DNA of 64,000 bases from a bacterium (GTDB taxonomy: Bacteria > Verrucomicrobiota > Verrucomicrobiia > Opitutales > Opitutaceae), in NCBI GenBank assembly GCA_010027235.1, contig RGVP01000001.1:573-64572 (forward strand), in the 5' to 3' direction. The position numbers and the translations under genes were made by a program. Below, piece by piece: positions 3,805 through 46,722 of this stretch (position 1 is its first letter; each line of letters starts with the position of its first letter). The notes below the pieces were generated by a model, which was given only the letters and a program-made list of their open reading frames with translations, was not told where the DNA came from and searched no databases.

Positions 3805-4233
3805 TGCGGACGAGCTGGGCCGGCGGGCAAAGAGTGTGGACGATGGTTCAAGGATCCTTTGGCAGCAGGGGTCGGGGAGGGGGCGAATGCCCCCGTCACC
3901 GCCAGGGCAAACTGCCGGTATGCGATGTGCACCGTGGCCTCGTCCGCTGTCACCTCTGCCGAGCGCCGCCCGCCGCTCCTCGGGCGCGAGCTGGGCCAGA
4001 TGCGCGTGCACGCGGGGCCTTGCTGGGTCGGGGATGGTGACTTGGATCTGCATGGGCGCTGGGTTTAGGTGGGTTGACTCAGCGGGCGGGGCAGGCCCGG
4101 GCAGGGTATTTTAGTTCCATCGGTAACGCCGCTTTTGTGGTGGGCATCCGGTGGAGCTTAAGGGGGAGCACTCTTTATGGGGTGGTCCCCTTCTTTTTTC
4201 CACATAGAGACCAAGCGGAGGGGCTGAGCGTGA

Positions 4234-6381
4234 TTAGAAGCGGGCGGTGATGCCGAGGCGGATGGCGAGGGGAGAGCCGGGGCTGATATTGTTATTGCTG
4301 TGCGCGTTGGCGTAGTAACCGGTGTCGAAAAGGTTCTCCACATTGAGCTGGGCCTGGAGGTGCTGGTTGAAGCGGTAGAACAAGGCGGCATCGTAGCGCA
4401 CGAAGTCCGGCAGGGTCACGGTATTGTCGGCGGCGGCGAAGAGCTCGTCGCGGTAGATCAGGCCCAAGCCCGCGCCCCAGACGGCGGTGAATTCGTAGCG
4501 GTTCCAGAGGGAGAATGTGTTACGCGGGAGTTGCGGGATGCGGGTGCCGGCCGGGATGGCGCCGTTGTCGGATTGGCTTTCGCCGTCCTGATAGGCGTAG
4601 CCGGCGTTCACGGTCCAGCGGCGGGTGAAGTGGCCGGCGGCGCTTAGCTCGACTCCGCGGACCTGCTGACCGTCCACCAGGATCAAGGTGCCGACCGGAG
4701 GCCCGCCGGCGGTGCCGGCGGCGGGGTCGGTGATGGCCTGGTGGAAGCGGTCGAGTTGGTAGGCGGCGGCGGTGAAGGCGAGCTCGTTGGTCGCGTCCCA
4801 CTTCGCTCCGACCTCGAGGTTTTCGAACCGCTCGGGTTCGAGTGCGGCGTTGGTGACGGAAAGGCCGGCAAGCTGCTCGCCGGCGCGAGGCACGAAGGCG
4901 AGGGTGTGGCTGGCGTAGAACGAGACGTGTTCGATGGGTTTGTAGACGAGTCCGGCGCGAGGGGACACGAGGTCGTCGGAGGTTTCGAGCGTGGCGCCGG
5001 TGCGGTGGTTGGAGAAATCCACCGTGAAGTGATCGAGGCGGGCGCCGGCGACGAGTTGGAGCTTGGGAAGGAGCTGAATCTGGTCCTGGAGGTAAACGGC
5101 CGCGACTTTGGCCACGCTGTGGTTGTCGGCGTCGGTGGCGCTCTGGCGGAAAAAAAGTAGACCGGAGTAGCGCGGGTTGGCGGTGCCGACGCTTCCGAGC
5201 GCGGTGAGGACGGCGGAGGTCGAGGAACCGCTGGCACGGAAATTGTTGGTTACTTGGCGACCGAGCTCGAGGCCCAGCAGGACTTTGTGTCCTATCGGGC
5301 CGGTGGCGAAATCGACTACGTAGTCGGTCTGATTGAAGAGATTCTCGCGATTGGTGGCCTGGTTGTAGGCGGAAATGGCGACGAGGGTGCCGGCGGGGTT
5401 CACGGCGTCAGGGAATACGTTTTGGTAGAATTTATCGTAGGTGGCGTGGCGGGTCGAATTGCGGAAAGTGGCGCCGTTCTCGAAGCCGTGGTCCAGCGAG
5501 GCGGAGAACGCGACGACATTGGTGTTGGTGGGACTGCGTTCGGGGTCGCCGAAAAAGGTGCCCGAGTTGGTGGCGAGCGGTTTGCCGTTGTAGGAAGGCA
5601 CGCCGCGGTCGGCGACGCGCTCCTCGTGGAAGTGTTCAAAACCGACGCGCAGCACAGTGCGCTCCCCGAGGCGGAAGCCGGCGGTCGGGTTGAGGCCTTC
5701 GCGCTGGAGCTCAACGTCTTCGCGATAGCTTCTGGAATTCTCGTAAACGCCGGTGAGGCGCAGTGTCGCGTCACGGGTGACGGGCTGGTTGACATCGAAC
5801 GTGGTGCGATTCTGCTCCCACGATCCGGCGAGGGCGGAGAATTCGTAAAAGGAAGCGCTGCCCGGGCTGGCTTGTTTCGTCGCGCGATTCAGAATTCCGC
5901 CTGGTCCGCTGCGGCCGAACATCATGCCGGCGGAGCCCTTCAGGATTTCGAGCCGCTCGAGGTTGTAGAAGTCGCGGTAGTATTGGACGTCGTCGCGCAC
6001 GCCATCGACAAAGTAGTCGCCGGTGGAGCTGTTGCCTCGCAGGACGATGGTGTCCCGGTTGCCCTCGCCCTGCGCAACGCCAACGCCCGGCACGTAGCGG
6101 GTGGCTTCGCCGATGCTGGTGATTGCCTTGTCCGCGAGAAAGTCCTTGGAGAGCACGGAGACGGACTGCGGGGTGTTAAGAACAGAAGTGGCGGTCTTGG
6201 TCGCGACGGTGGTTTCCTTGACATTGTAACCGTCGGCGCGGGGGGAGTGGATCTCGATCGGGTCAAGCACAAGGGGGACGTCGGCGCTCATCTCTGAGGC
6301 GGTGCACGCCGAGCCCGTGAGCAAACTTAGGGCGAGGGTGCCAAAGAAAAGAACATGAGATGAAATGAGACATGGTTTCAT
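4234..6381 (-). CDS. TonB-dependent outer-membrane receptor (metal/siderophore type)
   Basis: Signal peptide, then the plug block TATSVLNTPQSVSVLSKDFLADKAITSIGEATRYVPGV, a long beta-barrel region, and a C-terminal ...ITARF ending in aromatic Phe. The start is either 6381 (MKPCLISS) or 6399. Confidence 0.9.
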   Translation of the reverse strand: MKPCLISSHVLFFGTLALSLLTGSACTASEMSADVPLVLDPIEIHSPRADGYNVKETTVATKTATSVLNTPQSVSVLSKDFLADKAITSIGEATRYVPGVGVAQGEGNRDTIVLRGNSSTGDYFVDGVRDDVQYYRDFYNLERLEILKGSAGMMFGRSGPGGILNRATKQASPGSASFYEFSALAGSWEQNRTTFDVNQPVTRDATLRLTGVYENSRSYREDVELQREGLNPTAGFRLGERTVLRVGFEHFHEERVADRGVPSYNGKPLATNSGTFFGDPERSPTNTNVVAFSASLDHGFENGATFRNSTRHATYDKFYQNVFPDAVNPAGTLVAISAYNQATNRENLFNQTDYVVDFATGPIGHKVLLGLELGRQVTNNFRASGSSTSAVLTALGSVGTANPRYSGLLFFRQSATDADNHSVAKVAAVYLQDQIQLLPKLQLVAGARLDHFTVDFSNHRTGATLETSDDLVSPRAGLVYKPIEHVSFYASHTLAFVPRAGEQLAGLSVTNAALEPERFENLEVGAKWDATNELAFTAAAYQLDRFHQAITDPAAGTAGGPPVGTLILVDGQQVRGVELSAAGHFTRRWTVNAGYAYQDGESQSDNGAIPAGTRIPQLPRNTFSLWNRYEFTAVWGAGLGLIYRDELFAAADNTVTLPDFVRYDAALFYRFNQHLQAQLNVENLFDTGYYANAHSNNNISPGSPLAIRLGITARF

Positions 6382-6387
6382 ATGGGA

Positions 6388-6459
6388 TTGAGACTCCATA
6401 TCAAATATAGAAAACAGTCAAGTTGGTTTTGAGACTCAATCTCTATAAAATTGAGTGAT
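6388..6459. promoter_or_regulatory. Candidate operator region: TTGAGACTC (6388-6396), TTGAGACTCAA palindrome (6429-6439), TTGAGTGAT (6451-6459)
   Basis: AT-rich divergent intergenic region between the TonB receptor and the COG0523 gene. It carries a 9-bp direct repeat and a 5-1-5 inverted repeat, read directly from the sequence. Assigning it to a Zur/Fur-type repressor is inference. Confidence 0.25.
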
Positions 6460-6494
6460 TGCTCGCGGACTGTGAAATAAAGGAAATAGAAATT

Positions 6495-7709
6495 ATGGAT
6501 ATCCTCGAAGATTGCCGTCCGCCGGTGACTGTTTTTTGCGGTTTCCTCGGTGTGGGTAAAACGACTTTGCTCAGGCACTTGTTAGGGCAGGCGGCCACGG
6601 CTGGGCGTGAGGGTGGGGCGGCGCGGTGGGCGGCGGTGGTCAATGACGTGGCGGCGGTGAACATCGACGGCTCGCTGGTGAGGGCGGAGGCGGCGGAACA
6701 GCGGGCGCTGGGCACGAGCGGGGCGGCGGAAGTGGTGGAGTTGGGCAACGGTTGCGTGTGTTGCTCGGGGGCGGACGATCTCGGGGAGGCGATCGCTCGG
6801 CTGGCGGATAGAGGGCCTTACGACCATATCTGGGTTGAGACGAGCGGGGTGGCGGATCCGCGCGGTGTTGCGACTTTGTTCACCCGCAAAAATCCATTTG
6901 GACGGAGTTTGGCTGACCGAGCGCGGCTAGCGGCGTTGGTAACGGTAATTGATGTAGTCGCCTTCGCGGAGGAGGCGGCAAAGGCGGGCGGGCGGGGGCG
7001 CAGCGTGGCCGGGAGTGGGCAGCGACCAGTATTTGAACTGATGCTGGAGCAGATCGAATGCGCTGACGTGGTGGTGCTTAACCAGTGCGATCGGGTCGAA
7101 CTGGGGGGCGCAGACTTGGCGAGGGCGGAGGCACTGGTGGCCGGCCTCAATGCACGCGCAGAGCTTGTTCGAACGGAGCATGGGCAAATTTCGGCGGAGT
7201 TTTTCACCGAAAGGATGCGTTTTGATGGGGGGGCTACGCTGAGTGCGGCCCGTTGGGTGCGGGAATTAAACCGGGTGGCGGTAGATCGGACTGGAATCGC
7301 GGTAAAACCCCAGACGATCTTTGGGACGCCGCGTCATGAGGCGAAATATGGCATCACCAGCTTTGTTTACCGAGCGCGAAGGGGCTTCGACGGCCAGCGT
7401 TTGCGAGATCTTTTTGTCGGCGGGCTGCCGGGGGTCTTGCGGGCAAAGGGGTTTTTTTGGACCAAGGAAATGCCGGATGAAATGGGTTTTGTTTCGGTAG
7501 CTGGCGGGATAATTCGCTGGGAGGCGCTAAGTGTCTGGTGGGCGGCGCGTATCGCCATGGGGCGGGCGACTTTGGCGGACCGGCCGGAAAGTGTAGTGGC
7601 GAACTGGGCTGAGCCCCAAGGCGATCGGCGTCAGGAAATCGTTTTAATTGGGGTGGATATGGATCAAGCGGCCTTGTTTAAGGCTTTGGATCAATGTCTT
7701 GCGAGTTAA
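6495..7709 (+). CDS. COG0523/CobW-family G3E GTPase (putative zinc metallochaperone)
   Basis: P-loop CGFLGVGKTTLL and metal-binding motif GCVCCS, with a C-terminal CobW_C-like region. The ATG at 6495 is preceded by AAGGAAA. The ORF-track start at 6459 is a TTG. Confidence 0.85.
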   Translation: MDILEDCRPPVTVFCGFLGVGKTTLLRHLLGQAATAGREGGAARWAAVVNDVAAVNIDGSLVRAEAAEQRALGTSGAAEVVELGNGCVCCSGADDLGEAIARLADRGPYDHIWVETSGVADPRGVATLFTRKNPFGRSLADRARLAALVTVIDVVAFAEEAAKAGGRGRSVAGSGQRPVFELMLEQIECADVVVLNQCDRVELGGADLARAEALVAGLNARAELVRTEHGQISAEFFTERMRFDGGATLSAARWVRELNRVAVDRTGIAVKPQTIFGTPRHEAKYGITSFVYRARRGFDGQRLRDLFVGGLPGVLRAKGFFWTKEMPDEMGFVSVAGGIIRWEALSVWWAARIAMGRATLADRPESVVANWAEPQGDRRQEIVLIGVDMDQAALFKALDQCLAS

Positions 7710-7769
7710 CCTCTAGAAAATCGACCAAAGATCGTGTTGATTATTAAAGATACAGAAGGTTGAGACGTA

Positions 7770-9647
7770 ATGGAAACTGACATGGAATCTGCCCCTTCTT
7801 CGAGTGCGCCTGTTTTGAATCCCGCGCCATCGATCTCCACCGGGCCTGCTTTGAGGCCATCTACCATCCTGCTGGTCGAGTATGATAAGCTAAGTCAAAG
7901 ACTGGTTACGATGACTCTGACCGCCTCAGGTCATGAGGTGTTAGTGGCGGGATCGATAGCCGAGGCCATGGTCCACTTGCGCAAAAATCCGCTGGTGGAT
8001 CTTGTGGTTTTAGACAACCAGTTTGGCCTCGAAAAAGGCTTTGGTCTTATCGCTGAGATACGTCGACTAAAGTTCTTAAATGACATTCCTTTAACAGTTT
8101 ATACTGATACACGTGACCGCGATGTCGTTCGTCGCTACTTGGAACTAGGCGTTCAGGGATTTCATCTTAAACCTTACAAGGTGGAGACTTTGCTAGCCGA
8201 GTTGCAGCGGGCGCATGCCAAGGGCAGGTTGGAAAGTTTGATTGAGCCGGCGGAAGTGGCCTGCCGCAGGCTCAAGGTCACGCTAGAGCAATATGCGGGG
8301 TTATTAAACAGCGGGGCGGGGGCCGCCGAGGAGTGTTGCCAGACCGTGCGCCGACTTTTGCTTTCCGCAGATGATTCGCGGGTATCGATGGCGTTTCGCA
8401 CTATGGCGAAACAACTTAACCAACTGGGTGTGCATATAATCGAGAAGCTTGGCGCTCAGGCTGAGGACGAATTGCGAAGGACAGAATACTCGGCCTGCAC
8501 GGAGACCCTCGGAACCATTGATAACGTCGCGATGTTTCTGCGCAGGCGTGCACTCGACTACCTAGCCGTGGGCAACTCCGTAGTTAACGGTGTTCCTGGC
8601 GGCACATTAGTTCCCTTTGGGCAGCGTAAAACCCAGCAAGCACCCACGCCTTCGGTTTTACGTGATAACTCAATAGCGCCCTACGTGCGGGCGATTTTAT
8701 CGCAACCAATAGGTAGCTTCGGCACACAATCTATCTTGCGCATTATGGAAGCCCCTTTTGCTGGGGGCGAATTAACTCCATCGGGCTATAATTGGATAAA
8801 TCACCCCTCTGTTCTCCTTTGGTTTGACGTCATATCCTGGCTGCATGGCGTGGAAAACTACGTCGATAGTGATGTCGTTTCCATGCTGGAGTCTTTGCGA
8901 GGGTTTGAGTCGACTATGGAAGCGGTGCTCAACCGGAGCGAAAGCAATACCGTGCCCGAAGGGTTTGAGGTTGATTACAAATTTGCGGTCAAGAAATTGG
9001 GGGTAACCAAGGGTGCGATACTCGTGGCAGCGGGTCGTATCGCACGTGGTGGGCTAAACGGGAATATTCCACTTAGCCTTTTAAGGCAGCATGCTATTGT
9101 GCTTATGCTCATCGGTTTCGAGTTTGCGCGATTGCTCAAGGTCACACTGCCCCACAAGGTGGCGATTGCGGCCCTTTTGGACAAGATTGGGTTGTGGACG
9201 GTGGCCTTAAACGAACCCCTGTTAGCTGCACTCGCTCTGGCACGCACGCAGCACGTAAGCAGTGCCGTAGAAGCAGAGGAGGAGGTTCTTGGGATCAGCT
9301 TTGGTGCGGCTGGCGCTCTATGGATTAAGGCTGCCGGGGTAAGTAATGACGCTCTTTACATGGATACCGCCAGAGGGACCAGTTCCGTGCAAGAGAACGG
9401 AGTCACTGTGGCCTTGGTCCAAGCGGTGAAGCAGTTGGCCTTAGCGGCCTCCCATGGGGATACAGCTTCGCTCAACGTCGTGGCGGACGCAATGCGTGCG
9501 CCTGATTACCCACTTTGGGAAACATTGAAGCGTCATGCAGTTCCGCTGCCCGCGGAACCGCTTGAGTTAGTTGAACTGATTTTACCGATGGCTAAATCGG
9601 TGGTTTGGATCTCCGAGCAGATGCTCGGTATGCGCAGTAACTCCTGA
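7770..9647 (+). CDS. Response-regulator receiver domain protein with a large unrecognised C-terminal region
   Basis: Receiver-domain landmarks: LLVEYDK, DLVVLDNQF (phospho-acceptor Asp), LTVYTDT and HLKPY. The remaining roughly 470 aa have no motif I can name; an HDOD-like segment is only a weak impression. Confidence 0.7.
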   Translation: METDMESAPSSSAPVLNPAPSISTGPALRPSTILLVEYDKLSQRLVTMTLTASGHEVLVAGSIAEAMVHLRKNPLVDLVVLDNQFGLEKGFGLIAEIRRLKFLNDIPLTVYTDTRDRDVVRRYLELGVQGFHLKPYKVETLLAELQRAHAKGRLESLIEPAEVACRRLKVTLEQYAGLLNSGAGAAEECCQTVRRLLLSADDSRVSMAFRTMAKQLNQLGVHIIEKLGAQAEDELRRTEYSACTETLGTIDNVAMFLRRRALDYLAVGNSVVNGVPGGTLVPFGQRKTQQAPTPSVLRDNSIAPYVRAILSQPIGSFGTQSILRIMEAPFAGGELTPSGYNWINHPSVLLWFDVISWLHGVENYVDSDVVSMLESLRGFESTMEAVLNRSESNTVPEGFEVDYKFAVKKLGVTKGAILVAAGRIARGGLNGNIPLSLLRQHAIVLMLIGFEFARLLKVTLPHKVAIAALLDKIGLWTVALNEPLLAALALARTQHVSSAVEAEEEVLGISFGAAGALWIKAAGVSNDALYMDTARGTSSVQENGVTVALVQAVKQLALAASHGDTASLNVVADAMRAPDYPLWETLKRHAVPLPAEPLELVELILPMAKSVVWISEQMLGMRSNS

Positions 9648-35196: not shown

Positions 35197-35416
35197 GTGG
35201 AGGTTTCGTGGTTACGATCTGAAGGAGTCTATAATGAGCGTTTTTACATCATAAATTAGGTTAAACTTGTAACAAAAACGCCACGACTCATCAGAGGAAA
35301 ACGGCTTGCGTGATGGTCCAGTCGGAGGAAACTCCGTTTGCAACGCGCCCTCCGCGCACCTCCGCACTCCCGCTCAACACACCTCCGCTGGCACTGGCCC
35401 GCTTTCGTTAATTCGC

Positions 35417-37414
35417 ATGGATGAGACTCCTTCCCCGCAAACGCCCGAATCTAATTCCGGGCTTAACAAGCTAGACTTAACCCAACTCCAAGGGTTCAGC
35501 TTTGGCACTTCATGGAGTCAGGATAAAGGCGGAGCTGCCAGCGGTGCGCCTCGACAAGAGCGCCGTGACGATCGTCCCCGCCGCGACGGTGGTGCCCCGG
35601 TCGTGCGTGATCGCCGTGGCGATTTTAAGCGTTCTGCCCCTTCACCTGCAGCTCAATCTAATGAGGCCGCAGCTCCCACTGGTGCGGGCGCGCCTTCGGG
35701 CGTCGAACGCCCATCTTTCCGGCGCGACGGTTCTTCTGGCGGCCCCGGCGGCTACCGCGGCGGAGAACGTCCGCGTTTTGAGCGACGCGAAGGCCAGGGT
35801 GCTGGCGCCGGTGGTGCTCGTCGGGAAGGAGGTCCCGGTGTTCCTCGTGGTGATTTTCGCGGCCCTCCGCGAGAGCCGGTCGGGCCTTACATTAGTCCAT
35901 TTTTCAACGTCACTTTTTATCCAGAGGATGCCAGTTTTAAGGTCCTATCGGAGGCAATTCGCAAATCCTGCCGGACTTTTGAACTCTTTTATATTGCTCG
36001 TTCAGTCGTTGAAAAAAACGAACGTTTCGTCGCGGTCGTGCAGCGTATCCAAGCTGGGGGGAAACCCAGCACGGCCCAGATTGAAGGTGAGGCCACAGCC
36101 CAGCCTAACGTCAAAGCGGCGCCGTTTTTCGTATCGGTCCCGGATGGCGTGCCCTTCGACACTGAGGATGCTGCCATTGCTCACGTCCTGGAAAAGCACT
36201 TGGGTAACTTCTTCGAATCCAATGATGTAGAAGTTGAAGCGCCCAAGGGTAATTTCCAAGTGATCAACCGCTGCACGATTACAGGCACGCTGCTCGCCCC
36301 GCCCAATTACCATCGTTACGCCTCCATCCTCGCTCAGCATCATGCGGCTAACATCCGCATCCCTCTTGAAGCCTATAAGAGCAAGATCGAGACCGTCCGT
36401 GATGCCGAGGTAGTCGCGCAGTGGTTGGAGAAGATGAAGAAGACCACTCGCTACACGGTTAAGCCTGTTCCGGTGCGTGCACCCAAGCAGGAAGTGGCGA
36501 CGATTGCAGATGCTTCCGCGCCTGTTGACGCAGCTCCCGCAACCGACGCGGCGCCCGAGGCGGTCGCTGAAACCGCTCCAACCGCTCCCGCTCTGCCCTA
36601 TTTCGATTCGCTGGAAGAGGCCCGCCAATGGCTGCTGACCGAGGCACGTGGGCGAGTAGTGCGTTCGGTTGAACAGTTGCGTTTCCCAGGCAAAATCCTA
36701 GAGCTTATGCCTGAATCCGGTGAGATCCGCCGCGCAGTCGATGGCGCTTTGGCCAACCAGCGCCGCTTCCCGCTCGATACCGCCAACGCCCTGCGTGGAC
36801 GCCTGCGCCGAGAGAGTTTCACGATTTTTAAGAAGGGCTCCAAAGGCATCAGCTACGTTTGCGCGGTGAAGCGTCGCTTCCGCGTTCCCGGGCAGACGTT
36901 CTCCGATTCGCTGGCATCATTGATCGCCTTTATTGAGGCGCATCCGATGGTCAAAGGCAGTGAGCTCGCGGCCAAACACCTCGGCTTGGATCCGCGTCCA
37001 GTTCCTGCCGAAGGCGTGACTCCAGAACCCATTCCTGTCCTCGAACAGGAGCAGTTGCTCAAACTGAAGGGCGACCTTCGTTATCTGGTCAAAGAGGGCT
37101 ATGTCACTGAATTTGTGGACGGCACCTTGTTCTGTCCTCCTGCGATGGTTGAGGCCCGTAAGCGTGAAATTGAAGCTTCAGATATCGATCCGGAAAACTT
37201 CCCCGAGGCGCCTAAGTCTTTAGTATCCGAAGCTCCATTACAGGCTGAGATTACTCCAACGGAATCGGTTGCTGTAGTTGAGCCTCGGTTGGCCCAGGCG
37301 GGTGTGGAAGCTGCCGGCACGGATGTAGCTCAGGACAACTCGGCGACCACAACCGAAGCGAGTGCAGGCGATGCGGCACCCCTTGAGTCTGAAGTTAACA
37401 AATCGGCAGAGTAG
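35417..37414 (+). CDS. Conserved-looking hypothetical protein with an N-terminal Arg/Gly-rich disordered region
   Basis: Long ORF with the start trimmed to ATG 35417 (MDETPSPQ). Residues about 50-190 are RGG/RRD-rich (RRDGSSGGPGGYRGGERPRFERREGQGAGAGGARREGG). The remainder is ordered, but I do not recognise it. Confidence 0.6.
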   Translation: MDETPSPQTPESNSGLNKLDLTQLQGFSFGTSWSQDKGGAASGAPRQERRDDRPRRDGGAPVVRDRRGDFKRSAPSPAAQSNEAAAPTGAGAPSGVERPSFRRDGSSGGPGGYRGGERPRFERREGQGAGAGGARREGGPGVPRGDFRGPPREPVGPYISPFFNVTFYPEDASFKVLSEAIRKSCRTFELFYIARSVVEKNERFVAVVQRIQAGGKPSTAQIEGEATAQPNVKAAPFFVSVPDGVPFDTEDAAIAHVLEKHLGNFFESNDVEVEAPKGNFQVINRCTITGTLLAPPNYHRYASILAQHHAANIRIPLEAYKSKIETVRDAEVVAQWLEKMKKTTRYTVKPVPVRAPKQEVATIADASAPVDAAPATDAAPEAVAETAPTAPALPYFDSLEEARQWLLTEARGRVVRSVEQLRFPGKILELMPESGEIRRAVDGALANQRRFPLDTANALRGRLRRESFTIFKKGSKGISYVCAVKRRFRVPGQTFSDSLASLIAFIEAHPMVKGSELAAKHLGLDPRPVPAEGVTPEPIPVLEQEQLLKLKGDLRYLVKEGYVTEFVDGTLFCPPAMVEARKREIEASDIDPENFPEAPKSLVSEAPLQAEITPTESVAVVEPRLAQAGVEAAGTDVAQDNSATTTEASAGDAAPLESEVNKSAE

Positions 37415-37455
37415 ACCCAGTCTTCACTAACTTTTATCTCGATAACGTTTCCGAT

Positions 37456-37487
37456 CCTAGGCTTCGATTTATCGCATGAAGCCTAGG
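37456..37487. terminator. Perfect 10-bp hairpin CCTAGGCTTC-N12-GAAGCCTAGG between convergent genes
   Basis: Inverted repeat read directly from the sequence. It lies in the AT-rich gap between the 702-aa ORF (+) and the EamA gene (-). There is no strong U tract. Confidence 0.45.
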
Positions 37488-37626
37488 TAACTTATACCCC
37501 AAACGTTGACTTATCTAGCTTAGTCGATCCGGATTCGCTAGATTTCCGTTACTTAAGTCGCTGAATATTGAGCTTTAGCGATTTTATTTAGCCCTGCCTA
37601 GCAGCAGAACAACTTCTTACCCAGCT

Positions 37627-38706
37627 TTAATTTAGAGTGGAATGTGGTTCTGTGTTAGCGGTGCGAGCGGGCGGCTTTAGTTGGATCAATACATTGGCGG
37701 TCGTGATAAGTCCTCCGCCGACTAATAACGTCCAAGTAGCGGTTTCATTTGGATACTCAACGGCTGCCCATACAGAGAAGAGTGCCGGTAAAAACAGCGC
37801 TAGGAGTGAACCGAAAATCGGCTCAGCACAATACACCAAGCCAGCTTCAGTGGCGCTTATCTTTGGTTGCCATGCATTCATCAAACCATAGGCCCCGACT
37901 GTGCACACCAGGGTAAGCAGCAAGGTAAGGGCTATCCACGGCCCTGAAGACCAAGGGGCCGCGAGCGCGGCAGACATTCCTGTAGCGGGGGCTAGTCCGA
38001 GCAGTAGAGACGTGTAAATCCCCGTCTGAGTAGTGAACATAGCCAACGAGAGGCGGGCAGGGCGGTTGCCTGCGAATTCAGGGCGCTCCAGCCAAAGTAT
38101 CTGGCCCATGAAAAAGGTCGAAGCAATCAGGGTCTCAATCTCGCCACGGCCCATGTGAAAGTCGCTCCAGCTAAAGCGGCCTAGCACGGCCACGCCGGCG
38201 AGCACCAGCGCACAAGAAATCCATACTAAGTATTCCGGACCGCGCCGAGCCCGCCAAGCGACGTAAATCGGGATCAGAATAGCATAGAATTGAGTCAAGA
38301 ATGCCGACGTCGAGGCGGCCGTGTATTGCATGCCGTCACATTGGAAAAGCATCCCTGCAGTCGAAAATAGGCCGATCACTCCGCCCTGTATCCACTCACC
38401 GCTTCGGATGTCACCTGCAAGCAAGGCTCGCCATTGCCAGACGGCTAAAAGAAACGCGCCAAGCGCAAACCGAGGCACCAGCACGTAAGTAGTCACGAAC
38501 CAAGAGCTGGCTGTAGAATCGACTCTAGTGTGTATCAGCATCAGGGTTTTAATTAACGGAAAACTGAGTCCCCAGAACGCTGTTGCCAGAACTAGCATGG
38601 CGATCGCCTGCGAGCGGTTGGTGGTGCGTAAAGCGTCGGAAGCTGGCATCATGGGTCCAAGGTGTCGGCGCCTAATCACGCGCTCCAGCGCAATATCACG
38701 GGTCAT
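37627..38706 (-). CDS. EamA/DMT-superfamily transporter
   Basis: About 10 predicted TM helices in two EamA-like halves (AMLVLATAFWGLSFPLIK...). The start is uncertain, with several in-frame Met codons near the N-terminus. Confidence 0.8.
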   Translation of the reverse strand: MTRDIALERVIRRRHLGPMMPASDALRTTNRSQAIAMLVLATAFWGLSFPLIKTLMLIHTRVDSTASSWFVTTYVLVPRFALGAFLLAVWQWRALLAGDIRSGEWIQGGVIGLFSTAGMLFQCDGMQYTAASTSAFLTQFYAILIPIYVAWRARRGPEYLVWISCALVLAGVAVLGRFSWSDFHMGRGEIETLIASTFFMGQILWLERPEFAGNRPARLSLAMFTTQTGIYTSLLLGLAPATGMSAALAAPWSSGPWIALTLLLTLVCTVGAYGLMNAWQPKISATEAGLVYCAEPIFGSLLALFLPALFSVWAAVEYPNETATWTLLVGGGLITTANVLIQLKPPARTANTEPHSTLN

Positions 38707-38784
38707 AGTCGGAGCGCTTCCACTGGTGACCCCTCGGCGCGAACCGAGCTCGACTGCAACTCGGCTTCAGGCCTTAAATAAGAC

Positions 38785-39786
38785 GTGATCGCCTCTGTTG
38801 CTTTCCGGAATTTCAAGGCGCTCCGTTCTGCCCGGATCGAGCTCTCACCGTTTAACCTCGTAATCGGGCCAAACGGTTCAGGCAAAACTAGCCTAATCCA
38901 AGCGGTGTTGCGCCTCCGCACGCTTGCGCGACTACCGATGTCGCAAGCAGCTACTGAAAGTGATAGAGATTCCGCTCAGATCGCTTTCCGGTTTAATCCG
39001 CCCCACGATGGAATTGAAGCGACGCTGACTTGTCGTGATGAGGAAAGCTGTGACCTCTTGCAGTTGACGCCCAGCATCGTTGCTCGAGAGCTGAATGATT
39101 GGTCGGTATTACGGGCCCGCCTCCTTACTGCCCGCGCTTACTTGCTAGATTCTAGGTCAATAGTCCGTCCAGTTCAGGCGGGCGCTTCCCACGAGCTCGC
39201 ATCCGACGGCAGCAATCTGACCGCCTGCCTCGCGGCACTGCGCGAGACTTCGCCCGAAGCCTTTGCCGGACTGCGCGCAGAATTGCTGCAGCTTTTCCCT
39301 GAATATGCCGATCTCGTGATTGATACCAACCGCAGCACCTTTGCGCTTCGCCTTACGGGCGGAGGGTCGCCCGTCTTGGTGCCTGCCGATGAAGTTTCGC
39401 AAGGCACGCTCTACGTCCTAGCCTTGCTCGCCTTGGCTCATGATCCCGTGCCGCCTGCAATTGTCTGCCTGGAGGAGCTTGATCGCGGTATCCATCCGCG
39501 CCTTCTGCGCGGTGTCCGTGATGTGCTTTACCGCCTGACTCACCCCGCTGACTACGGTCATATGCGCGCGCCGGTGCAAGTGATCGCCACCACGCATTCG
39601 CCCCAATTGCTCGATCTTTTTCGAGATCACCCCGAGGAGATTGTGATCGCGGATAAACATGGTCGTGCGGCCACTTTTGCCCGGCTCTCAGAGCGAGCTG
39701 ATTTGACCGAACTCTTGGCCGACGGAGGCACGCTTGGAGACCTCTGGTATTCCGGTATTCTTGGCGGAGTGCCCGAGGCGACATGA
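38785..39786 (+). CDS. ABC/SMC-like AAA_21-type ATPase (OLD/AriA/AbiLi-like)
   Basis: GTG start with an in-frame TAA two codons upstream. N-terminus MIASVAFRNFKALRSARIELSPFNLVIGPNGSGKTSLIQAVL (Walker A), then SQGTLYVLALL, Walker B IVCLEELDRGIHP and H-loop VIATTHSPQLL. Confidence 0.8.
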   Translation: MIASVAFRNFKALRSARIELSPFNLVIGPNGSGKTSLIQAVLRLRTLARLPMSQAATESDRDSAQIAFRFNPPHDGIEATLTCRDEESCDLLQLTPSIVARELNDWSVLRARLLTARAYLLDSRSIVRPVQAGASHELASDGSNLTACLAALRETSPEAFAGLRAELLQLFPEYADLVIDTNRSTFALRLTGGGSPVLVPADEVSQGTLYVLALLALAHDPVPPAIVCLEELDRGIHPRLLRGVRDVLYRLTHPADYGHMRAPVQVIATTHSPQLLDLFRDHPEEIVIADKHGRAATFARLSERADLTELLADGGTLGDLWYSGILGGVPEAT

Positions 39787-40466
39787 ACGCGAAGTGTCTG
39801 CGTCTGGCCCTAATGGGCGAATCCTTGGTGGATGAAGCCGCGCTCGCCATCCTTGTTGAAGCTGTTCTTGGGCGTTCCTTCATTCAGGTTCAGCCCGGAT
39901 TGCGGGCGCGTGGTTGGCCTTCCGTGCTTCAGATTCTTCCGGCGGTCGCTCGCCACCTCCATTTCAACACTGATGCTGACGCCTTAGTTGTTCTTGTTGA
40001 TGCGGACGACACCGAGCCGCATGGTGCCCACCACGAGGTTCCAGGTTATTTCCATCCTCGCTGCCGACTCTGCCAACTTCGGGCGGTTTTTCGGCGCGCA
40101 ACCCGCCATCTCCCACCTGCGCGCGGCCGAGATCGCATGCTCCGCGCAGTCGGGTTAGCTGTTCCTGCCGCTGAGGCTTGGTATCTCTGTGGTAACGATG
40201 AGACGGTCGGCGAAGCTGCTTGGGTAGCGGGCCGCGTAACTGGCCGGGCACCCTACACCCGCCGCGAGCTCAAGGCTCGGGTCTATGGCACTGAACGGCC
40301 TAACCTTGCCCAAGCTGTAGTTGGAGCCACGGCAGCGGCTCGGCGTCATGCTCGCGACCCAGGTCGGCTTGAGCACGACTTTCCAGGTTTTGCGGCGCTC
40401 GCTACCGACCTTCGCAGCTGGCAATTCAAACTATCGGAAGCCGAATCGAGCTGCATCCCTGCCTAA
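39783..40466 (+). CDS. Toprim-like / DUF4276-like protein, partner of the upstream ATPase
   Basis: Its ATG overlaps the ATPase stop (ATGA). It has LALMGESLVDEAAL (Glu13), ALVVLVDADDTEP (Asp73/75/76) and AAEAWYL. This order of acidic motifs is as I recall it for Toprim/DUF4276/RloB-type domains. The family assignment is from memory. Confidence 0.55.
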   Translation: MNAKCLRLALMGESLVDEAALAILVEAVLGRSFIQVQPGLRARGWPSVLQILPAVARHLHFNTDADALVVLVDADDTEPHGAHHEVPGYFHPRCRLCQLRAVFRRATRHLPPARGRDRMLRAVGLAVPAAEAWYLCGNDETVGEAAWVAGRVTGRAPYTRRELKARVYGTERPNLAQAVVGATAAARRHARDPGRLEHDFPGFAALATDLRSWQFKLSEAESSCIPA

Positions 40467-40480
40467 TTTCCTCTCCCTCC

Positions 40481-42700
40481 ATGCGCGCCCAGTATGCACC
40501 GTGGTATATCGCCACTCCCCTTCGTTGGTTGGCCCACTGTCTCTACCGAGTTCATTCGCTTCACGTCGTTAGGTTACCCGCAGGTGGAGCTCTTCTACTG
40601 GCCAATCACTTGTCCTATGTTGATGTAGTTGTGCTCCAGCTCGCTTGTCCGCGGCCGATACGCTTTGTGGGCCACGAAAACCTAATGGCGGCACACTGGC
40701 TTTTTCGGCTCGTTTTCCGCCTCACCGGCACGATCCCGGTTTCACGTAACAATGCGCTTGGTGCTACCCGTAGCGTGGTGGACTGCCTTGGAAGGGGGGA
40801 ATACGTTCTCGTATTTCCCGAAGGCGCAATTTCGCGCACCGGCCAAGTGATGCAGCTAGAGCGTGGCTTTGAACTCATGGCGCGACTCGCTGGCGTGCCC
40901 GTGGTGCCGGTTTACCATGACGGTCTTTGGGGCTCTGTTTTTTCCTTCTCCGGTAACGCCTACGTTTTCAAATCCCCACGTTTAATGCCGACGCCGGTGA
41001 CGGTGGTTTGGGGTGAGCCCATCCCTTCACGGCAAGCGGACACGGCGACGGTGCGGGCTGCCTTGCTGGAGCTAGGGGCGGAAGCTTTTTCCGCCCATCC
41101 CCAGTTACGACGTCATTTGGCCACCGAAGTAATTCGGGCGCTGGCTAAACGACCGGGGAGAATTGAGATTATCGATCGCACCTACACTCGCAGGAAAGTA
41201 TCTGCCGCCGGCTTGTTGGCGACGGCGGCTGCGCTCTCGCGTCACCTGCGCCGGACTGTGCGCGAGAAACGAATCGGCATCGTGCTGCCGCCAGGGGGAG
41301 CGGCGACCATCGCCAACCTCGCGGTGCTTTGTGCGGGAAAAATTCCGGTCAACCTAAACTTCACCACCAGTCGTCCGGCTCTTGAGGCCAGTCTGCGTAT
41401 CGCCGATATCCACACCATTCTCACGGCTGACACGCTGAGGACAAAAATACGTGAATTCCCTTGGACCGAGGACACTAGGGATTTCTCTGCTACCTTGGAC
41501 GCGGCAGGTGGTAAACGGGCCGTCCTGCCTTGGTTTATCGCTACCTGGTTGCTGCCAAATCAGTGCCTGCCTTTCCTGCTCGGCTTGCCGTCTACCGGGG
41601 GCGATACTGAGGCAGGGCTGTTGTTCACCAGTGGTAGCTCGGGGGAACCCAAGGGGGTGGTGCTCACCCATCGGAACCTAATCGGAAATTGCCGCCAGAT
41701 TTCATCGCTCGCCATTTTGCCGGACACGGCAGTGATGCTGGGCTGCCTGCCGCCTTTCCATAGTTTTGGCTTCACCGTCACGATTTGGTATCCGCTATTG
41801 CGAGGTTGCCGGGTGGTGACGGTGCCGAGCGCCTTGGAATCCCGCCGTATCCTGGATGCGATTCGCGAGGAGGCCTGCACCGTCTGGGTTGCAGCCCCTA
41901 CTTTTGTCCGGCCGGTTTTAAACAAGGCACAACGGCGTGATCTGCGGACGCTTGAGGTGCTTGTATCAGGGGCGGAGAAGCTCCCAGAAGATCTAGCGGC
42001 ACTGGCACGGGAGAAATTTCATCTGGAAATCATGCAGGGGTATGGCTCAACGGAGACCTCGCCTGTCGTCTCGGTAAACCAGCCTGATCCACCGGTAACA
42101 ACTGGCACGGGAGAGGCGCAGCGCGGGCAGTGCCCCGGCTCTGTTGGTAGGATGCTGCCTGGCATGGCCGCGCGTTTGTTGGATCCAGTAACCCTAGCCC
42201 CGTTGCCGATTACAGCCAGCGGGTTGGTCGTCATGCGTGGCGCCAACGTCTTTAACGGCTACTTACTGGACCCGGAGCGCTCGGCCCAGGCCTTTCATGA
42301 GGGCTGGTTCATCACTGGTGATTTTGGCCGATTTGATGAGGCTGGATTCCTCTGGATCGAAGGCAGACTATCGCGTTTTTCTAAAATTGGTGGCGAGATG
42401 GTGCCGCATGGAACCATCGAGGAAAAGCTGATTGAGCTTTGCTTAGCGAGTGTAACTGCGGAGGGGGAAACCTACCCCGTATTCATTACCGGTGTGCCTG
42501 ACGCACACAAAGGGGAGGCACTCGTCTTGCTCACCGTTCGAGCGGAACTCACAGCGGAGCTAATCCGAGAAAAACTAGCGGCCGCGGGAGTGCCTAATCT
42601 TTGGATACCCCGTATTGTAAAGAAGGTGGAAACCATCCCCGTGCTCGGAACAGGAAAAATTGATCTTAAGGCCGCTCGAGTTCTCGCCGCTGGACCTTGA
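40481..42700 (+). CDS. aas: Bifunctional acyltransferase / acyl-ACP (AMP-forming) synthetase, Aas-like
   Basis: N-terminal PlsC-type HX4D motif (ANHLSYVDVVV, VFPEGAISRTG). The C-terminal adenylate-forming domain has LLFTSGSSGEPKGVVLTHRNL, GYGSTETS and GWFITGDFG, with GTGKID at the end. Confidence 0.8.
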   Translation: MRAQYAPWYIATPLRWLAHCLYRVHSLHVVRLPAGGALLLANHLSYVDVVVLQLACPRPIRFVGHENLMAAHWLFRLVFRLTGTIPVSRNNALGATRSVVDCLGRGEYVLVFPEGAISRTGQVMQLERGFELMARLAGVPVVPVYHDGLWGSVFSFSGNAYVFKSPRLMPTPVTVVWGEPIPSRQADTATVRAALLELGAEAFSAHPQLRRHLATEVIRALAKRPGRIEIIDRTYTRRKVSAAGLLATAAALSRHLRRTVREKRIGIVLPPGGAATIANLAVLCAGKIPVNLNFTTSRPALEASLRIADIHTILTADTLRTKIREFPWTEDTRDFSATLDAAGGKRAVLPWFIATWLLPNQCLPFLLGLPSTGGDTEAGLLFTSGSSGEPKGVVLTHRNLIGNCRQISSLAILPDTAVMLGCLPPFHSFGFTVTIWYPLLRGCRVVTVPSALESRRILDAIREEACTVWVAAPTFVRPVLNKAQRRDLRTLEVLVSGAEKLPEDLAALAREKFHLEIMQGYGSTETSPVVSVNQPDPPVTTGTGEAQRGQCPGSVGRMLPGMAARLLDPVTLAPLPITASGLVVMRGANVFNGYLLDPERSAQAFHEGWFITGDFGRFDEAGFLWIEGRLSRFSKIGGEMVPHGTIEEKLIELCLASVTAEGETYPVFITGVPDAHKGEALVLLTVRAELTAELIREKLAAAGVPNLWIPRIVKKVETIPVLGTGKIDLKAARVLAAGP

Positions 42701-42730
42701 GAATTGCCTACACTGTTTTTAGGCGCCGGT

Positions 42731-44427: not shown

Positions 44428-45468
44428 TTACAAATCCTCATCATCGGTGGAGGTTGGCGATTCGGATGCAGGCGGATCAATCAGCGGGATGGCGGCGGAT
44501 ACTTTACGACCGTCGTGGCTGAGGGTATACAGCGGCAGCGGAGGATCTTTGGCGAGGCGTTTGACGAGAGCGGGATTAGTTCGTTTCGCCAACTCAAGCC
44601 AATGTAGGCCAGACGCGTCGCAGGCTAGGAACCTAGCGTAGGGCTTGAATACCTCGGGGCGCCCAAGTAGGCGAGCGCTGGCTGCAGCGTGGAGCCCAGA
44701 GCCGGGGCGGGATTGGTTTTCCAGAACGAGGCAGGAGTAGGCTTGGCTGCGGAGGTCGAGGCCAGCCCGGTGAGCGAAACGGACCCAATCGGGAGAGTTT
44801 TGCACGCCTTGGGGCGGACTGGCAAAAAAATGGCACCAGTCGCGGGCGTTGGTTTCGGCAAAGAGCGGGCAATTTTCGCGGTGGGTGCAGGGCGCCACGA
44901 TTCGGTGGGCGCTGAGGAGTTCATCGCGCACGGCGGCAAGGGCGCGACCGTCGGCGTGGGTGCCTGGCTCCACCCAGAGCACAGCGGCGGCGCGGGTGGC
45001 GAGTGCCAGTAGCTCGGCACGGCCCTCTGAGGTGAGCTCATTGAGCACGTGGCTAACCACGAGGGTATAAGGCTCGGTTGGTTCTGGTGTGGTCTGAACT
45101 TTAAGCCCCGGAAATGTTACCCGGGCTCGAGCGGCCGCGAAAGTGACCGCTTCCGGGCTATGATCAAGGAGCGCGAGACTTGAAAAATGAGCAGCGCCAA
45201 AGGTATCTAACACGCGGCGACCGGCTACGCCTGATCCGCAGCCGAAATCCACTAACGTTGTGCCGGCGGGTGGTCGCCAAGCCCGGAGGCTGAGCTCGGC
45301 GAGGAGGGCGTCCCATTTCCAGCCGATGCGTTCTCCGTAGGTGGCGTCATAGGCGGCGAGGGCGGACTGGGTTTGCCAATACGGACCGGAAGCGGCCGCT
45401 TCTCGTGCGAGGAAAACGGCACGTAGGCGGTCGAGGGCGTCCCAGTCGAGGGCGGAGAGGTTAGGCAT
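44428..45468 (-). CDS. Class I SAM-dependent methyltransferase, Rsm22-like (tentative)
   Basis: SAM motif I LVDFGCGSGVAG, plus a downstream Cys/His cluster APCTHRENCPLF...DWCHFF that I associate with the Rsm22 family. Confidence 0.55.
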   Translation of the reverse strand: MPNLSALDWDALDRLRAVFLAREAAASGPYWQTQSALAAYDATYGERIGWKWDALLAELSLRAWRPPAGTTLVDFGCGSGVAGRRVLDTFGAAHFSSLALLDHSPEAVTFAAARARVTFPGLKVQTTPEPTEPYTLVVSHVLNELTSEGRAELLALATRAAAVLWVEPGTHADGRALAAVRDELLSAHRIVAPCTHRENCPLFAETNARDWCHFFASPPQGVQNSPDWVRFAHRAGLDLRSQAYSCLVLENQSRPGSGLHAAASARLLGRPEVFKPYARFLACDASGLHWLELAKRTNPALVKRLAKDPPLPLYTLSHDGRKVSAAIPLIDPPASESPTSTDDEDL

Positions 45469-45474
45469 GGCGGT

Positions 45475-46722
45475 TTAGGCAGTGAGATCGATGCCGAGAT
45501 GGCGCGCGAGCCGCTGCTCGCGTATGCCGTAGAAGGCCGCAAAGGCCCGAGTGCGGTCGAGCAGACGCGTGCGCTGGGCGGCGAAGCTTGGGTCGCCGAT
45601 GGCGTGGACGCGATGGGCGGCTATGAGCACATTTTTCGCGGTATGCTCGGTGGAGATGAACTCGAAGACCTTGGTGCGGAAACCGACGCATTCGAGCAAC
45701 TGCGCGCGCAGGGCGTCGGTCACAAATTCGGACTGACGCTCCTGAAAAATACCGTGTCTTAGGGCATCGGCGAGCACCACGGGTGGGGTGAGTTGGGGCC
45801 GCAGTTCCTTCTGGCAGCAGGGAGAGACGACGAGAAGGCGGGCGCCCGCGGTGAGCCCTGCGGCGAGGGCATCGTCGGTAGCAGTATCACACGCGTGGAG
45901 CGCGATCAATACGTCCAGCGGTTTCACCGGCGAAGGCGCCACTGGGATGTCCCCCTCGATGAAGCGAAGGTGGCTGGAAAAACCAGCATCGTTAGCGAGG
46001 CGATTTGCCGCGGCTACAAGCTCGGCGCGGCGTTCGAGGCCGGTGATTTCAGCGCCGGGGCCGAGCAGGGCGGCAAGGGCGAAGGTAAGGTAACCCTTGC
46101 CAGCACCCATGTCGGCGATGCGTAGGGGCGCTGCGTCGCGAATGGCCAGTGTATCGAGACCGGCTTCGGCGAGCAAGTCGCGGAGGAGTTCGGCGAACTT
46201 TTCGATCTGTCGAAACTTATGTGCCATTCCATCGCGGGGTTGACCGCGATTGTTGGTCACGCCGAGGGCGCGTAACCAAGGGGCGGTAGGATCGAGCACG
46301 CGGTGTTTGCTGCGGTCGTGCCCGGATGGGCGGATAGGTGGGGCCCCATCAATGGTGATTAGGCGGATACGGGCGGGGCGGGCGGCGTCGGCGTTTTGCT
46401 CGAGCTGGATGGTTTGCAGCGGGGTGAACAGGTGGGCGTCGAGAAAAGATTCGGCGAGCAGTCCGGCTAGCAGGACAGCGGCCTCGGCTGGCGGGAGGTT
46501 TTTCGTCACATCTCGGGTGGCGTGACGGAAAACGAGGCAGACCTGCGGGCCGGTTTTTAGCATCACAGGACGAGCAAAAACGTTGCGCAGCGTGAGGTCT
46601 GGCGCGAAGGGGCGAAGTTTACCGAGGGTGAGTTTCACTAGCGTGCCGTCCGCTAGGGCTGCACGCAGCAGGTTTAAAAAACGGTTAGTGGAGTCAGGCT
46701 GGGGCATGGAGGGCGGGTTCAT
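45475..46722 (-). CDS. SAM-dependent methyltransferase with an uncharacterised N-terminal domain
   Basis: Motif I IADMGAGKGYLTFALAALL and ALHACDTATDDAL. Its start overlaps the pabC stop. Confidence 0.6.
   Translation of the reverse strand: MNPPSMPQPDSTNRFLNLLRAALADGTLVKLTLGKLRPFAPDLTLRNVFARPVMLKTGPQVCLVFRHATRDVTKNLPPAEAAVLLAGLLAESFLDAHLFTPLQTIQLEQNADAARPARIRLITIDGAPPIRPSGHDRSKHRVLDPTAPWLRALGVTNNRGQPRDGMAHKFRQIEKFAELLRDLLAEAGLDTLAIRDAAPLRIADMGAGKGYLTFALAALLGPGAEITGLERRAELVAAANRLANDAGFSSHLRFIEGDIPVAPSPVKPLDVLIALHACDTATDDALAAGLTAGARLLVVSPCCQKELRPQLTPPVVLADALRHGIFQERQSEFVTDALRAQLLECVGFRTKVFEFISTEHTAKNVLIAAHRVHAIGDPSFAAQRTRLLDRTRAFAAFYGIREQRLARHLGIDLTA

Follow-up and report, generated by a model that had tools for sequence, protein, structure and literature searches.

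In the present work, we examine two overlapping genes, called gene 1 and gene 2, in a stretch of 64,000 nucleotides from a bacterium of the family Opitutaceae (Verrucomicrobiota; GenBank assembly GCA_010027235.1, contig RGVP01000001.1, positions 573 to 64,572), which is referred to below as the window. Gene 1 encodes a compact ABC-type ATPase, and gene 2 a small protein whose family is unannotated in every library searched and carries an added conserved His/Cys segment. Throughout Opitutaceae, the pair has been passed on vertically at a locus that is nearly fixed, and the purifying selection acting on it is as strong as that on its housekeeping neighbour Aas. It constitutes a remote, unannotated sister family of the ATPase-nuclease pairs of the HEC-01 and Mad3-Mad4 type, from which it is set apart by its chromosomal fixation. 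The reading that we favour, with a probability of roughly 55%, is that the two genes form an ATP-gated nuclease module of the DUF4276/Toprim type that has been kept as a lineage-core surveillance function.

Both are real genes and no chance open reading frames (ORFs), since they have many homologues and a low ratio of nonsynonymous to synonymous substitution rates (dN/dS), and since the catalytic residues of the ATPase and the overlap between the genes have been kept. The protein collection holds 1479 homologues of gene 2, which fall into 623 clusters at 50% identity. The orthologous pair of Rariglobus has an identical overlap of 4 nt, and the same overlap is kept in four of five called pairs from other lineages, the one from Phycisphaerae included, while the fifth has a gap of 21 nt. 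An earlier interpretation of this DNA, made from the letters without database searches and called here the sequence-only reading, had described two ORFs coupled by an ATGA overlap, and both ORFs and the overlap are indeed found at the coordinates that it gave (see the table below).

Gene 1 matches the Pfam families AAA_21 (3.3e-27) and AAA_15 (3.7e-16), which agrees with the typing previously suggested from its N-terminus. Its best match among 123 in PADLOC is to HEC-01A (model PDLC04177, 2.7e-40), and five more HEC-01A models match at 2.5e-31 or below, such that the six span 2.7e-40 to 2.5e-31. AriA (4.8e-27 and 8.5e-19), Mad3 (2.6e-19), AbiLi (2.2e-17) and Old (1.6e-12) are weaker, and the further matches to PDC-M07A, PtuA and NsnB are also well behind HEC-01A. 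With the NCBIfam model MAD3 (antiphage_MADS3), gene 1 reaches 88 bits, where 420 would be needed to pass the cutoff. The conservation of the catalytic residues was counted over 79 orthologues, five of them from other lineages. Because K34, S-Q-G, E230/E231 and H271 are kept in 77–79 of these 79, gene 1 appears to encode an active ABC ATPase, which is of the HEC-01A type but falls short of the HEC-01A models in length. The motifs listed in the sequence-only reading are all in place, including IVCLEELD at residues 226–233, and R234, G235 and H237, which follow in the Walker B/D-loop region, are present in every orthologue.

It is worth adding that public gene calls shrink the ATPase to 144–198 aa in three long-read assemblies from other phyla (L086, 5928..7004; L087, 6003..7004; L099, 6958..8004). 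Pseudogenisation was considered for these three and ruled out: when checked by tblastn and translated, the ORFs prove to be full-length (about 335–360 aa), in a single frame and free of stop codons, and the short calls are therefore start-site mis-annotations.

We now turn to gene 2, for which residue conservation and profile comparison support the assignment as a distant relative of the DUF4276 proteins in which an acidic site is conserved. Conservation was evaluated in 130 diverged relatives with 33–60% identity. E13, D73 and W133 are found in all of them, and D17, R95, E131, E144 and K164 in at least 97%. The acidic residues occupy the motifs that had been pointed out earlier, with E13 in MGES, D73/D75/D76 in VLVDADD, and AEAWYL at residues 130–135. 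A His/Cys cluster follows the DxD motif, with H80 present in 108 of the relatives, H84 in 89, C94 in 113, R95 in 127 and C97 in 109; all five residues are invariant within Opitutaceae, and the cluster is a possible candidate for a structural metal site.

The connection to DUF4276 comes from an alignment of families. The genuine DUF4276 sequences were taken from plasmid-borne ATPase/DUF4276 pairs and verified with Pfam, and a homogeneous alignment of one subtype was prepared for hhalign. With this alignment, the gene 2 family is matched at 90.4% probability (E 1.4e-6, 113 columns), whereby E13 is paired with VEEPS, D73/D75 with VVVVDRDDDD, C94-R95 with C-R, and E131-W133 with EELEAWYF. A mixed alignment of seven DUF4276 sequences gave only 65.7% over 182 columns because the subtypes were misaligned, and the homogeneous one was used instead. 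Individual relatives of gene 2 provide further links in PADLOC and Pfam: two HEC-01B models are weakly matched by 31 and 23 of the 130 (best ca 1e-5), Mad4 by 18 and RloB by 6, while the Pfam model of DUF4276 is matched by a single one, at 3e-3. The Rariglobus orthologue is labelled as a DUF4276 family protein in UniRef. The gene 2 protein does not reach the gathering threshold of the Pfam model PF14103 (30.2 bits), compared to 31–210 bits for genuine DUF4276 controls, and ten of the most divergent relatives have no Pfam matches.

An AlphaFold (AF2) model of gene 2 was obtained with a mean predicted local distance difference test score (pLDDT) of 90.3 and a predicted template modelling score (pTM) of 0.86. 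It has strands at residues 7–11, 34–36, 67–73 and 121–127, with helices between and after them (helix 3 being residues 95–107), and thus a beta-alpha-beta-alpha-beta-alpha-beta core in an order that fits Toprim. In the model, the Glu is located past strand 1, the DxD past strand 3, and E131 past strand 4. DUF4276 and RloB have been described as Toprim members whose catalytic residues are arranged in this way (PMC12065111), and a two-metal residue set has been described for Bp OLD (PMC6755086). E13/D17, D73/D75, E131 and K164 of gene 2 would parallel E400/E404, D455/D457, E508 and K562 of that enzyme (PMC6755086), in which case K164 may correspond to the catalytic lysine K562. By this analogy, gene 2 encodes a putative two-metal nuclease of the Toprim type. 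The nuclease proposal of the sequence-only reading thus stands as far as the order of Glu, DxD and later Glu and the conservation of these residues are concerned, while the fold itself was not confirmed by structure comparison (see below).

In architecture, the comparison supports a place for the pair among the split ABC-ATPase/Toprim modules, since gene 1 is an ABC ATPase and gene 2 a DUF4276-like protein with a Toprim-style order of motifs. Among named systems, the PADLOC candidate HEC-01 ("Hma-embedded candidate 01") and Mad3/Mad4 of MADS come closest. In HEC-01, too, the gene of an ABC ATPase precedes that of a small protein of the Toprim type (ca 210–230 aa), HEC-01A models match gene 1 at 2.7e-40 to 1e-31, and HEC-01B has been described as a Toprim protein whose metal site resembles that of OLD (bioRxiv 10.1101/2024.01.29.577857). 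The gene 2 protein, on the other hand, matches no HEC-01B model, and PADLOC would therefore not call the pair. Gene 1, with 333 aa, is also shorter than the HEC-01A models (363–464), and the present pair is standalone, chromosomal and vertically inherited, outside any Hma, restriction-modification (R-M) or BREX system.

The DUF4276 (PF14103) and Mad3-Mad4 pairs resemble the present one in length, in the overlapping AAA_21 ATPase upstream, and in the motif order of Glu (strand 1), DxD (strand 3) and E-A-W-Y/F (strand 4). The gene 2 family differs from DUF4276 in its extra conserved H-x3-H...C-x2-C segment and in its chromosomal location, the genuine pairs that were sampled being plasmid-borne and, in one subtype, apparently spread by horizontal transfer. 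With respect to MADS, gene 1 falls far below the MAD3 cutoff, and the methyltransferase ORFs of the window lie 4–6 kb off on the opposite strand.

The other ABC-ATPase systems are more distant. OLD proteins are single polypeptides in which the ATPase and Toprim domains are fused, and those of class 2 have a UvrD-like helicase partner; AriA of PARIS is a protein of ca 55 kDa with insertion sequences. The OLD family (class 1 P2 Old, class 2 Gabija GajA) resembles the present pair in having both an ABC ATPase and a domain of the Toprim type, but here there are two separate genes, no Toprim_Old match and no helicase nearby, and the best stretch of the Old hidden Markov model (HMM) on gene 1 covers residues 2–44 only. 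Lactococcal AbiL (AbiLi/AbiLii) is also a two-gene system of an ATPase and a small partner. The AbiLi match of gene 1 is, however, much weaker than that of HEC-01A, and AbiLii is matched neither by gene 2 nor by its relatives. PARIS (AriA with the DUF4435 protein AriB) is likewise a split system of adjacent genes, one for an ABC ATPase, the other for a Toprim effector, but gene 1 is too short to hold the AriA insertion sequences, its AriA score is behind that of HEC-01A, and DUF4435/AriB is matched by neither gene 2 nor any of its 130 relatives. The logic of PARIS, with an ATPase that keeps the nuclease sequestered or gated, is plausibly shared (PMC11464382). PARIS typically resides on satellites or phages (PMC11464382), while the gene 2 family is not present in the phage or viral collections searched. 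Membership in OLD, PARIS or AbiL, of which the sequence-only reading had suggested an uncharacterised variant, is accordingly rejected: gene 2 has no match to DUF4435/AriB, Toprim_Old or AbiLii, and HEC-01A is far ahead for gene 1. A RecF/RecR identity was also considered and rejected, the NCBIfam recF match of gene 1 being confined to the P-loop N-terminus and no RecR or Toprim_4 match being found.

The distribution of the pair was followed with one genome per GTDB species. Relatives of gene 2 are found in 307 species, and the locus counts given here refer to the best 80 of these. All 80 are Opitutaceae or unclassified Verrucomicrobiota, some metagenome-assembled genomes (MAGs) being mislabelled, and they include nine named genera (Opitutus, Lacunisphaera, Rariglobus, Oleiharenicola, Nibricoccus, Ereboglobus, Cephaloticoccus, Ca. 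Didemnitutus and Ca. Salsuginivita). Of the 80 loci, 78 have a gene 1 orthologue immediately upstream of gene 2; one of the remaining two is cut by the contig end, and the other, L053, appears to lack gene 1. An Aas-like gene follows on the same strand within 6 kb in about 50 of the 57 Opitutaceae loci with enough sequence, frequently less than 150 nt away. In many Opitutaceae this downstream gene is a fusion of MFS_1, Acyltransferase and AMP-binding domains (LplT-Aas, ca 1145–1190 aa; e.g. L101, 8703..12140), while the Aas-like protein of the window (739 aa) has no MFS transporter domain. The upstream neighbours vary among Opitutaceae, and a few lineages have moved the pair, for example to a position beside PBP2/MreCD.

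The L053 locus, which belongs to a Verrucomicrobia MAG, contains an intact gene 2 orthologue (4196..4849, 63% identity) directly upstream of an LplT-Aas ORF of 1190 aa (4957..8529). There is no gene 1 homologue on the 10.8 kb of this locus, and an ORF of 914 aa on the opposite strand fills the upstream space. This gene 2 may be a natural orphan nuclease or an artefact of the MAG assembly.

Gene 2 is on average 66% identical to its counterpart in the window, Aas 60% and gene 1 57%. Over 46 genomes, the pairwise distances of gene 2 correlate strongly with those of Aas (Mantel r 0.87), and so do the distances of gene 1 (0.92), with p = 0.001; the evolutionary rates relative to Aas are 0.88x for gene 2 and 1.14x for gene 1. 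The dN/dS values are 0.04–0.10 for gene 2, 0.09–0.17 for gene 1 and 0.08–0.16 for Aas. A universally conserved, fixed housekeeping context across the phylum had been named in the sequence-only reading as something that would speak against a defence module; such a context is found family-wide in Opitutaceae and not phylum-wide. The defence islands in which it had proposed to look for orthologous pairs are not what surrounds the Opitutaceae loci, which show housekeeping flanks. The family-wide fixation weakens the interpretation as a defence island, although a defence role is still compatible with it.

Outside Opitutaceae, the gene 2 family also occurs in MAGs labelled Phycisphaerae, Blastocatellia and others, annotated there as hypothetical proteins only. 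These relatives always directly follow a full-length AAA_15/21 ATPase, usually with the 4-nt overlap, and their contexts differ between lineages. Two related genomes have panBC-smpB beside the pair, and elsewhere there are PIN/Phd and MazEF toxin-antitoxin genes, an integrase at a distance of 5 kb, and an SNF2-intein/SWIM pair. In the last case (L100, 1405..6902, in a genome of 4.3 Mb), the pair is directly downstream of a DUF3670-SNF2 helicase of 1529 aa and a SWIM zinc-finger protein, with a Uma2 endonuclease near. The helicase carries an intein with a LAGLIDADG domain, and the surroundings may represent a defence-like neighbourhood.

The genuine DUF4276 pairs that were sampled show a different behaviour. 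They are found on plasmids, enclosed by type I R-M subunits, by SNF2/methylase genes or by methylase/helicase genes, and one subtype is 64–85% identical across cyanobacteria, planctomycetes, acidobacteria and proteobacteria, which clearly points to recent and wide horizontal transfer. On the Meiothermus taiwanensis plasmid pMtWR-220 (L092, 3124..3759), this DUF4276 subtype lies between the S and R subunits of a type I R-M system, and genes for a macro-domain protein and DUF4433 are located just upstream inside the same R-M island. The other holders of the subtype (proteins P0390–P0509) are Thermosynechococcus, Isosphaeraceae, Pirellulaceae, Geothermobacter, Xanthomonadaceae and Fimbriimonadaceae.

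ABC ATPases paired with Toprim proteins recur in bacterial immunity, as seen in OLD, Gabija, PARIS, HEC-01 and MADS, and the detectable relatives of the two proteins come without exception from defence systems or candidates for such systems. To our knowledge, no activity has been demonstrated for the DUF4276 branch. The scenario that we propose is the following. The pair entered an ancestor of Opitutaceae and has been passed on vertically ever since, at one chromosomal site where the lipid gene (Aas or LplT-Aas) follows just downstream. The ATPase would dimerise on ATP and bind or gate the small nuclease, by analogy to OLD, Gabija and PARIS, and the nuclease would cleave nucleic acid by means of E13, D17, D73, D75, E131 and K164. 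The most probable role would be the surveillance of nucleic acid that is foreign or aberrant, or its restriction, as a function belonging to the core of the lineage and no mobile, accessory defence island. We regard it as a tentative possibility that a module of the defence type was captured by the Opitutaceae ancestor and kept in single copy and in synteny, either as "hard-wired" immunity or through co-option for an essential nucleic-acid task. In that case, the gene 2 family would be to the mobile DUF4276/HEC-01 pairs what a chromosomally stable form is to a mobile one.

It has to be stressed that a number of results weigh against the proposed surveillance nuclease. Some concern the identity of gene 2. 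The HMM scans of Pfam, PADLOC, NCBIfam and PHROGs gave zero matches for the protein at E <= 1, and none of the DUF4276, HEC-01B, Mad4 and RloB models matches it even at this level. The model comparison that the sequence-only reading had suggested for both proteins thus gave AAA_21 and AAA_15 for gene 1, and no DUF4276, RloB, DUF4435 or Toprim match for gene 2. A profile search of PDB sequences with the gene 2 family returned chance matches to Arf GTPases only (E >= 0.3). In Foldseek, neither the full model (against PDB and BFVD) nor a model of the core only (residues 1–140, against PDB) gave a significant match or a Toprim protein in the top 50, and the structures of OLD, RNase M5 and AriB are absent from these top 50. 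The best matches, with E >= 7e-3 (best ca 7e-3), are generic three-layer alpha/beta folds, e.g. lumazine synthase, CheY and Rho. For the proposed Toprim fold of gene 2, the support therefore comes only from the motifs and the order of the strands. Position 75, moreover, is Asp in 94 and Asn in 36 of the 130 relatives (28% Asn), which means that the nuclease chemistry is not guaranteed.

Other results on the same side concern the role in defence. A HEC-01 representative that was tested against phage gave no protection (bioRxiv 10.1101/2024.01.29.577857), and HEC-01 is not known to be active in defence. Searches with tblastn found no gene 2 relatives on 72,556 plasmids or 50,697 phage genomes, and there are none on 2.9 million IMG/VR viral contigs. 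Vertical inheritance, fixed synteny, housekeeping neighbours and the lack of copies on mobile elements are together atypical of defence systems, and the vertical, fixed chromosomal inheritance therefore makes a classical mobile defence role doubtful.

These last observations are the ones that a different explanation could use, namely that the pair is a domesticated housekeeping machine for repair, recombination or RNA maturation, with a logic like that of RecF-RecR or RNase M5 and no part in defence. It would be in line with vertical inheritance and fixed synteny in at least nine genera, with dN/dS values equal to or below those of Aas and the slow rate of gene 2, with neighbours such as a Lol-like ABC transporter, EamA, Aas and RimO, with the empty searches of plasmids, phages and viral contigs, with the separate stable synteny (panBC-smpB-pair) of a second lineage, and with the HEC-01 representative having no defence phenotype. 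We nevertheless consider it rather unlikely, as the detectable relatives are all found in HEC-01, MADS, AriA, Menshen, AbiL and Old, and no likeness is seen to the RecR, RNase M5 or Toprim models of Pfam, the recF match being limited to the P-loop. In addition, the pair sometimes lies beside toxin-antitoxin genes, an integrase or the SNF2/SWIM pair outside Opitutaceae, where its spread across phyla, judged from few named sources, appears patchy.

A further explanation retains the ATPase and questions the nuclease: gene 2 could be an alpha/beta partner with no catalysis or a different one, for example an adaptor or a phosphoesterase for a small molecule, and its likeness to Toprim would be superficial. 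The generic folds returned by Foldseek, the failure of every curated HMM to recognise the protein, and the Asn at position 75 in part of the family are all compatible with this. That hhalign aligns the family to DUF4276 motif by motif at 90% probability, that E13 and D73 are invariant and D17, E131 and K164 nearly so, that relatives match HEC-01B, Mad4 and RloB, and that gene 2 is obligately paired with an ATPase class that partners nucleases makes it improbable. Even less credence can be given to a tie between the pair and the downstream Aas/LplT-Aas gene in an operon for lysophospholipid recycling and membrane lipids. The aas gene of the window does start only 14 nt past gene 2 with no terminator between them, the same-strand arrangement recurs in most Opitutaceae loci as described above, and the L053 MAG keeps gene 2 beside LplT-Aas without gene 1. 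However, one to three unrelated genes (MarR, DUF2157, GDYXXLXY) intervene in several genera, the association is missing in some Opitutaceae, where the pair is beside PBP2/MreCD, and also in the five examined loci of different context, and no biochemical logic joins an ABC/Toprim pair to acyl transfer.

The coordinates of the features discussed are collected in the following table.

Table 1. Features of the gene pair and its two direct neighbours in window coordinates. Fractions are numbers of sequences carrying the residue, among 79 orthologues for gene 1 and 130 relatives for gene 2.
Feature	Position	Strand	Remarks
Gene 1	38785..39786	+	333 aa, GTG start; compact ABC-type ATPase, HEC-01A-like
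Walker A GPNGSGKTS (residues 28–36; K34)	38866..38892	+	G28, G31, G33, K34 in 79/79
ABC signature-like SQGT (residues 205–208)	39397..39408	+	S205 77/79, Q206 78/79, G207 79/79
Walker B / D-loop IVCLEELDRGIHP (residues 226–238)	39460..39498	+	E230 79/79, E231 78/79, D233 77/79
H-loop ATTHSP (residues 268–273)	39586..39603	+	T269 79/79, H271 78/79, S272 and P273 79/79
ATGA stop/start overlap (translational coupling)	39783..39786	+	read from sequence; recurs in relatives
Gene 2	39783..40466	+	227 aa, ATG start; putative DUF4276-like, Toprim-type metal-dependent nuclease, unannotated family
E13-S14-x2-D17, Toprim-type Glu after strand 1 and acidic residue one helical turn on	39819..39833	+	E13 130/130, D17 128/130
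D73-A-D75-D76, DxD at end of strand 3	39999..40010	+	D73 130/130; aligned with DUF4276 VVVVDRDDDD
H80, H84, C94-R95-x-C97 His/Cys cluster, located past strand 3 and before helix 3	40020..40073	+	conserved
E131-A-W133-Y134 motif just past strand 4	40173..40184	+	E131 128/130, W133 130/130
K164, lysine of C-terminal helical region	40272..40274	+	K in 129/130
EamA/DMT transporter, divergent, context	37627..38706	-	Pfam EamA 4.9e-11
Aas-like acyltransferase/acyl-AMP ligase, conserved downstream neighbour, context	40481..42700	+	Pfam Acyltransferase and AMP-binding

The flanks of the pair are those described in the sequence-only reading, namely an upstream EamA/DMT transporter gene, which is read from the opposite strand, and a downstream Aas-like gene. 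An EamA orthologue adjoins the pair in the closest relative (L006) only and is not a conserved neighbour. More widely, the pair is surrounded in the window by EamA, Aas, a Lol-like ABC transporter and RimO; these flanks are housekeeping in nature, and no Hma or other defence system, methyltransferase partner or helicase adjoins the pair. There are no tRNA genes in the 64 kb, and a promoter and terminator scan of positions 37400–43000 gave sites no commoner than in shuffled sequence. Past aas and rimO, 4–6 kb downstream, two adjacent ORFs with methyltransferase domains, Rsm22-like and Methyltransf_32, are located on the minus strand (44428..46722). They show 80–87% identity in the closest relatives and look housekeeping, unlike MADS-type partners. 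On the other side, an ORF of 702 aa (35306..37414, plus strand) has no Pfam match at E <= 1e-5 and is 81% identical in L006; the N-terminal third of its product is of low complexity and rich in Arg, Gly and Pro.

To conclude, the gene 2 family escapes the existing defence-finder and Pfam models, and its core-gene-like inheritance across a whole bacterial family is unusual for immune genes, with gene 2 evolving more slowly than its housekeeping neighbour Aas. With its compact size (333 and 227 aa), the pair would make a tractable model for biochemistry. If the pair is immune in function, it would be an example of a fixed, non-mobile defence, and if not, it would represent immune-type machinery co-opted for the physiology of the cell. 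Either outcome would aid the reading of the many "orphan" ATPase/DUF4276-like pairs.

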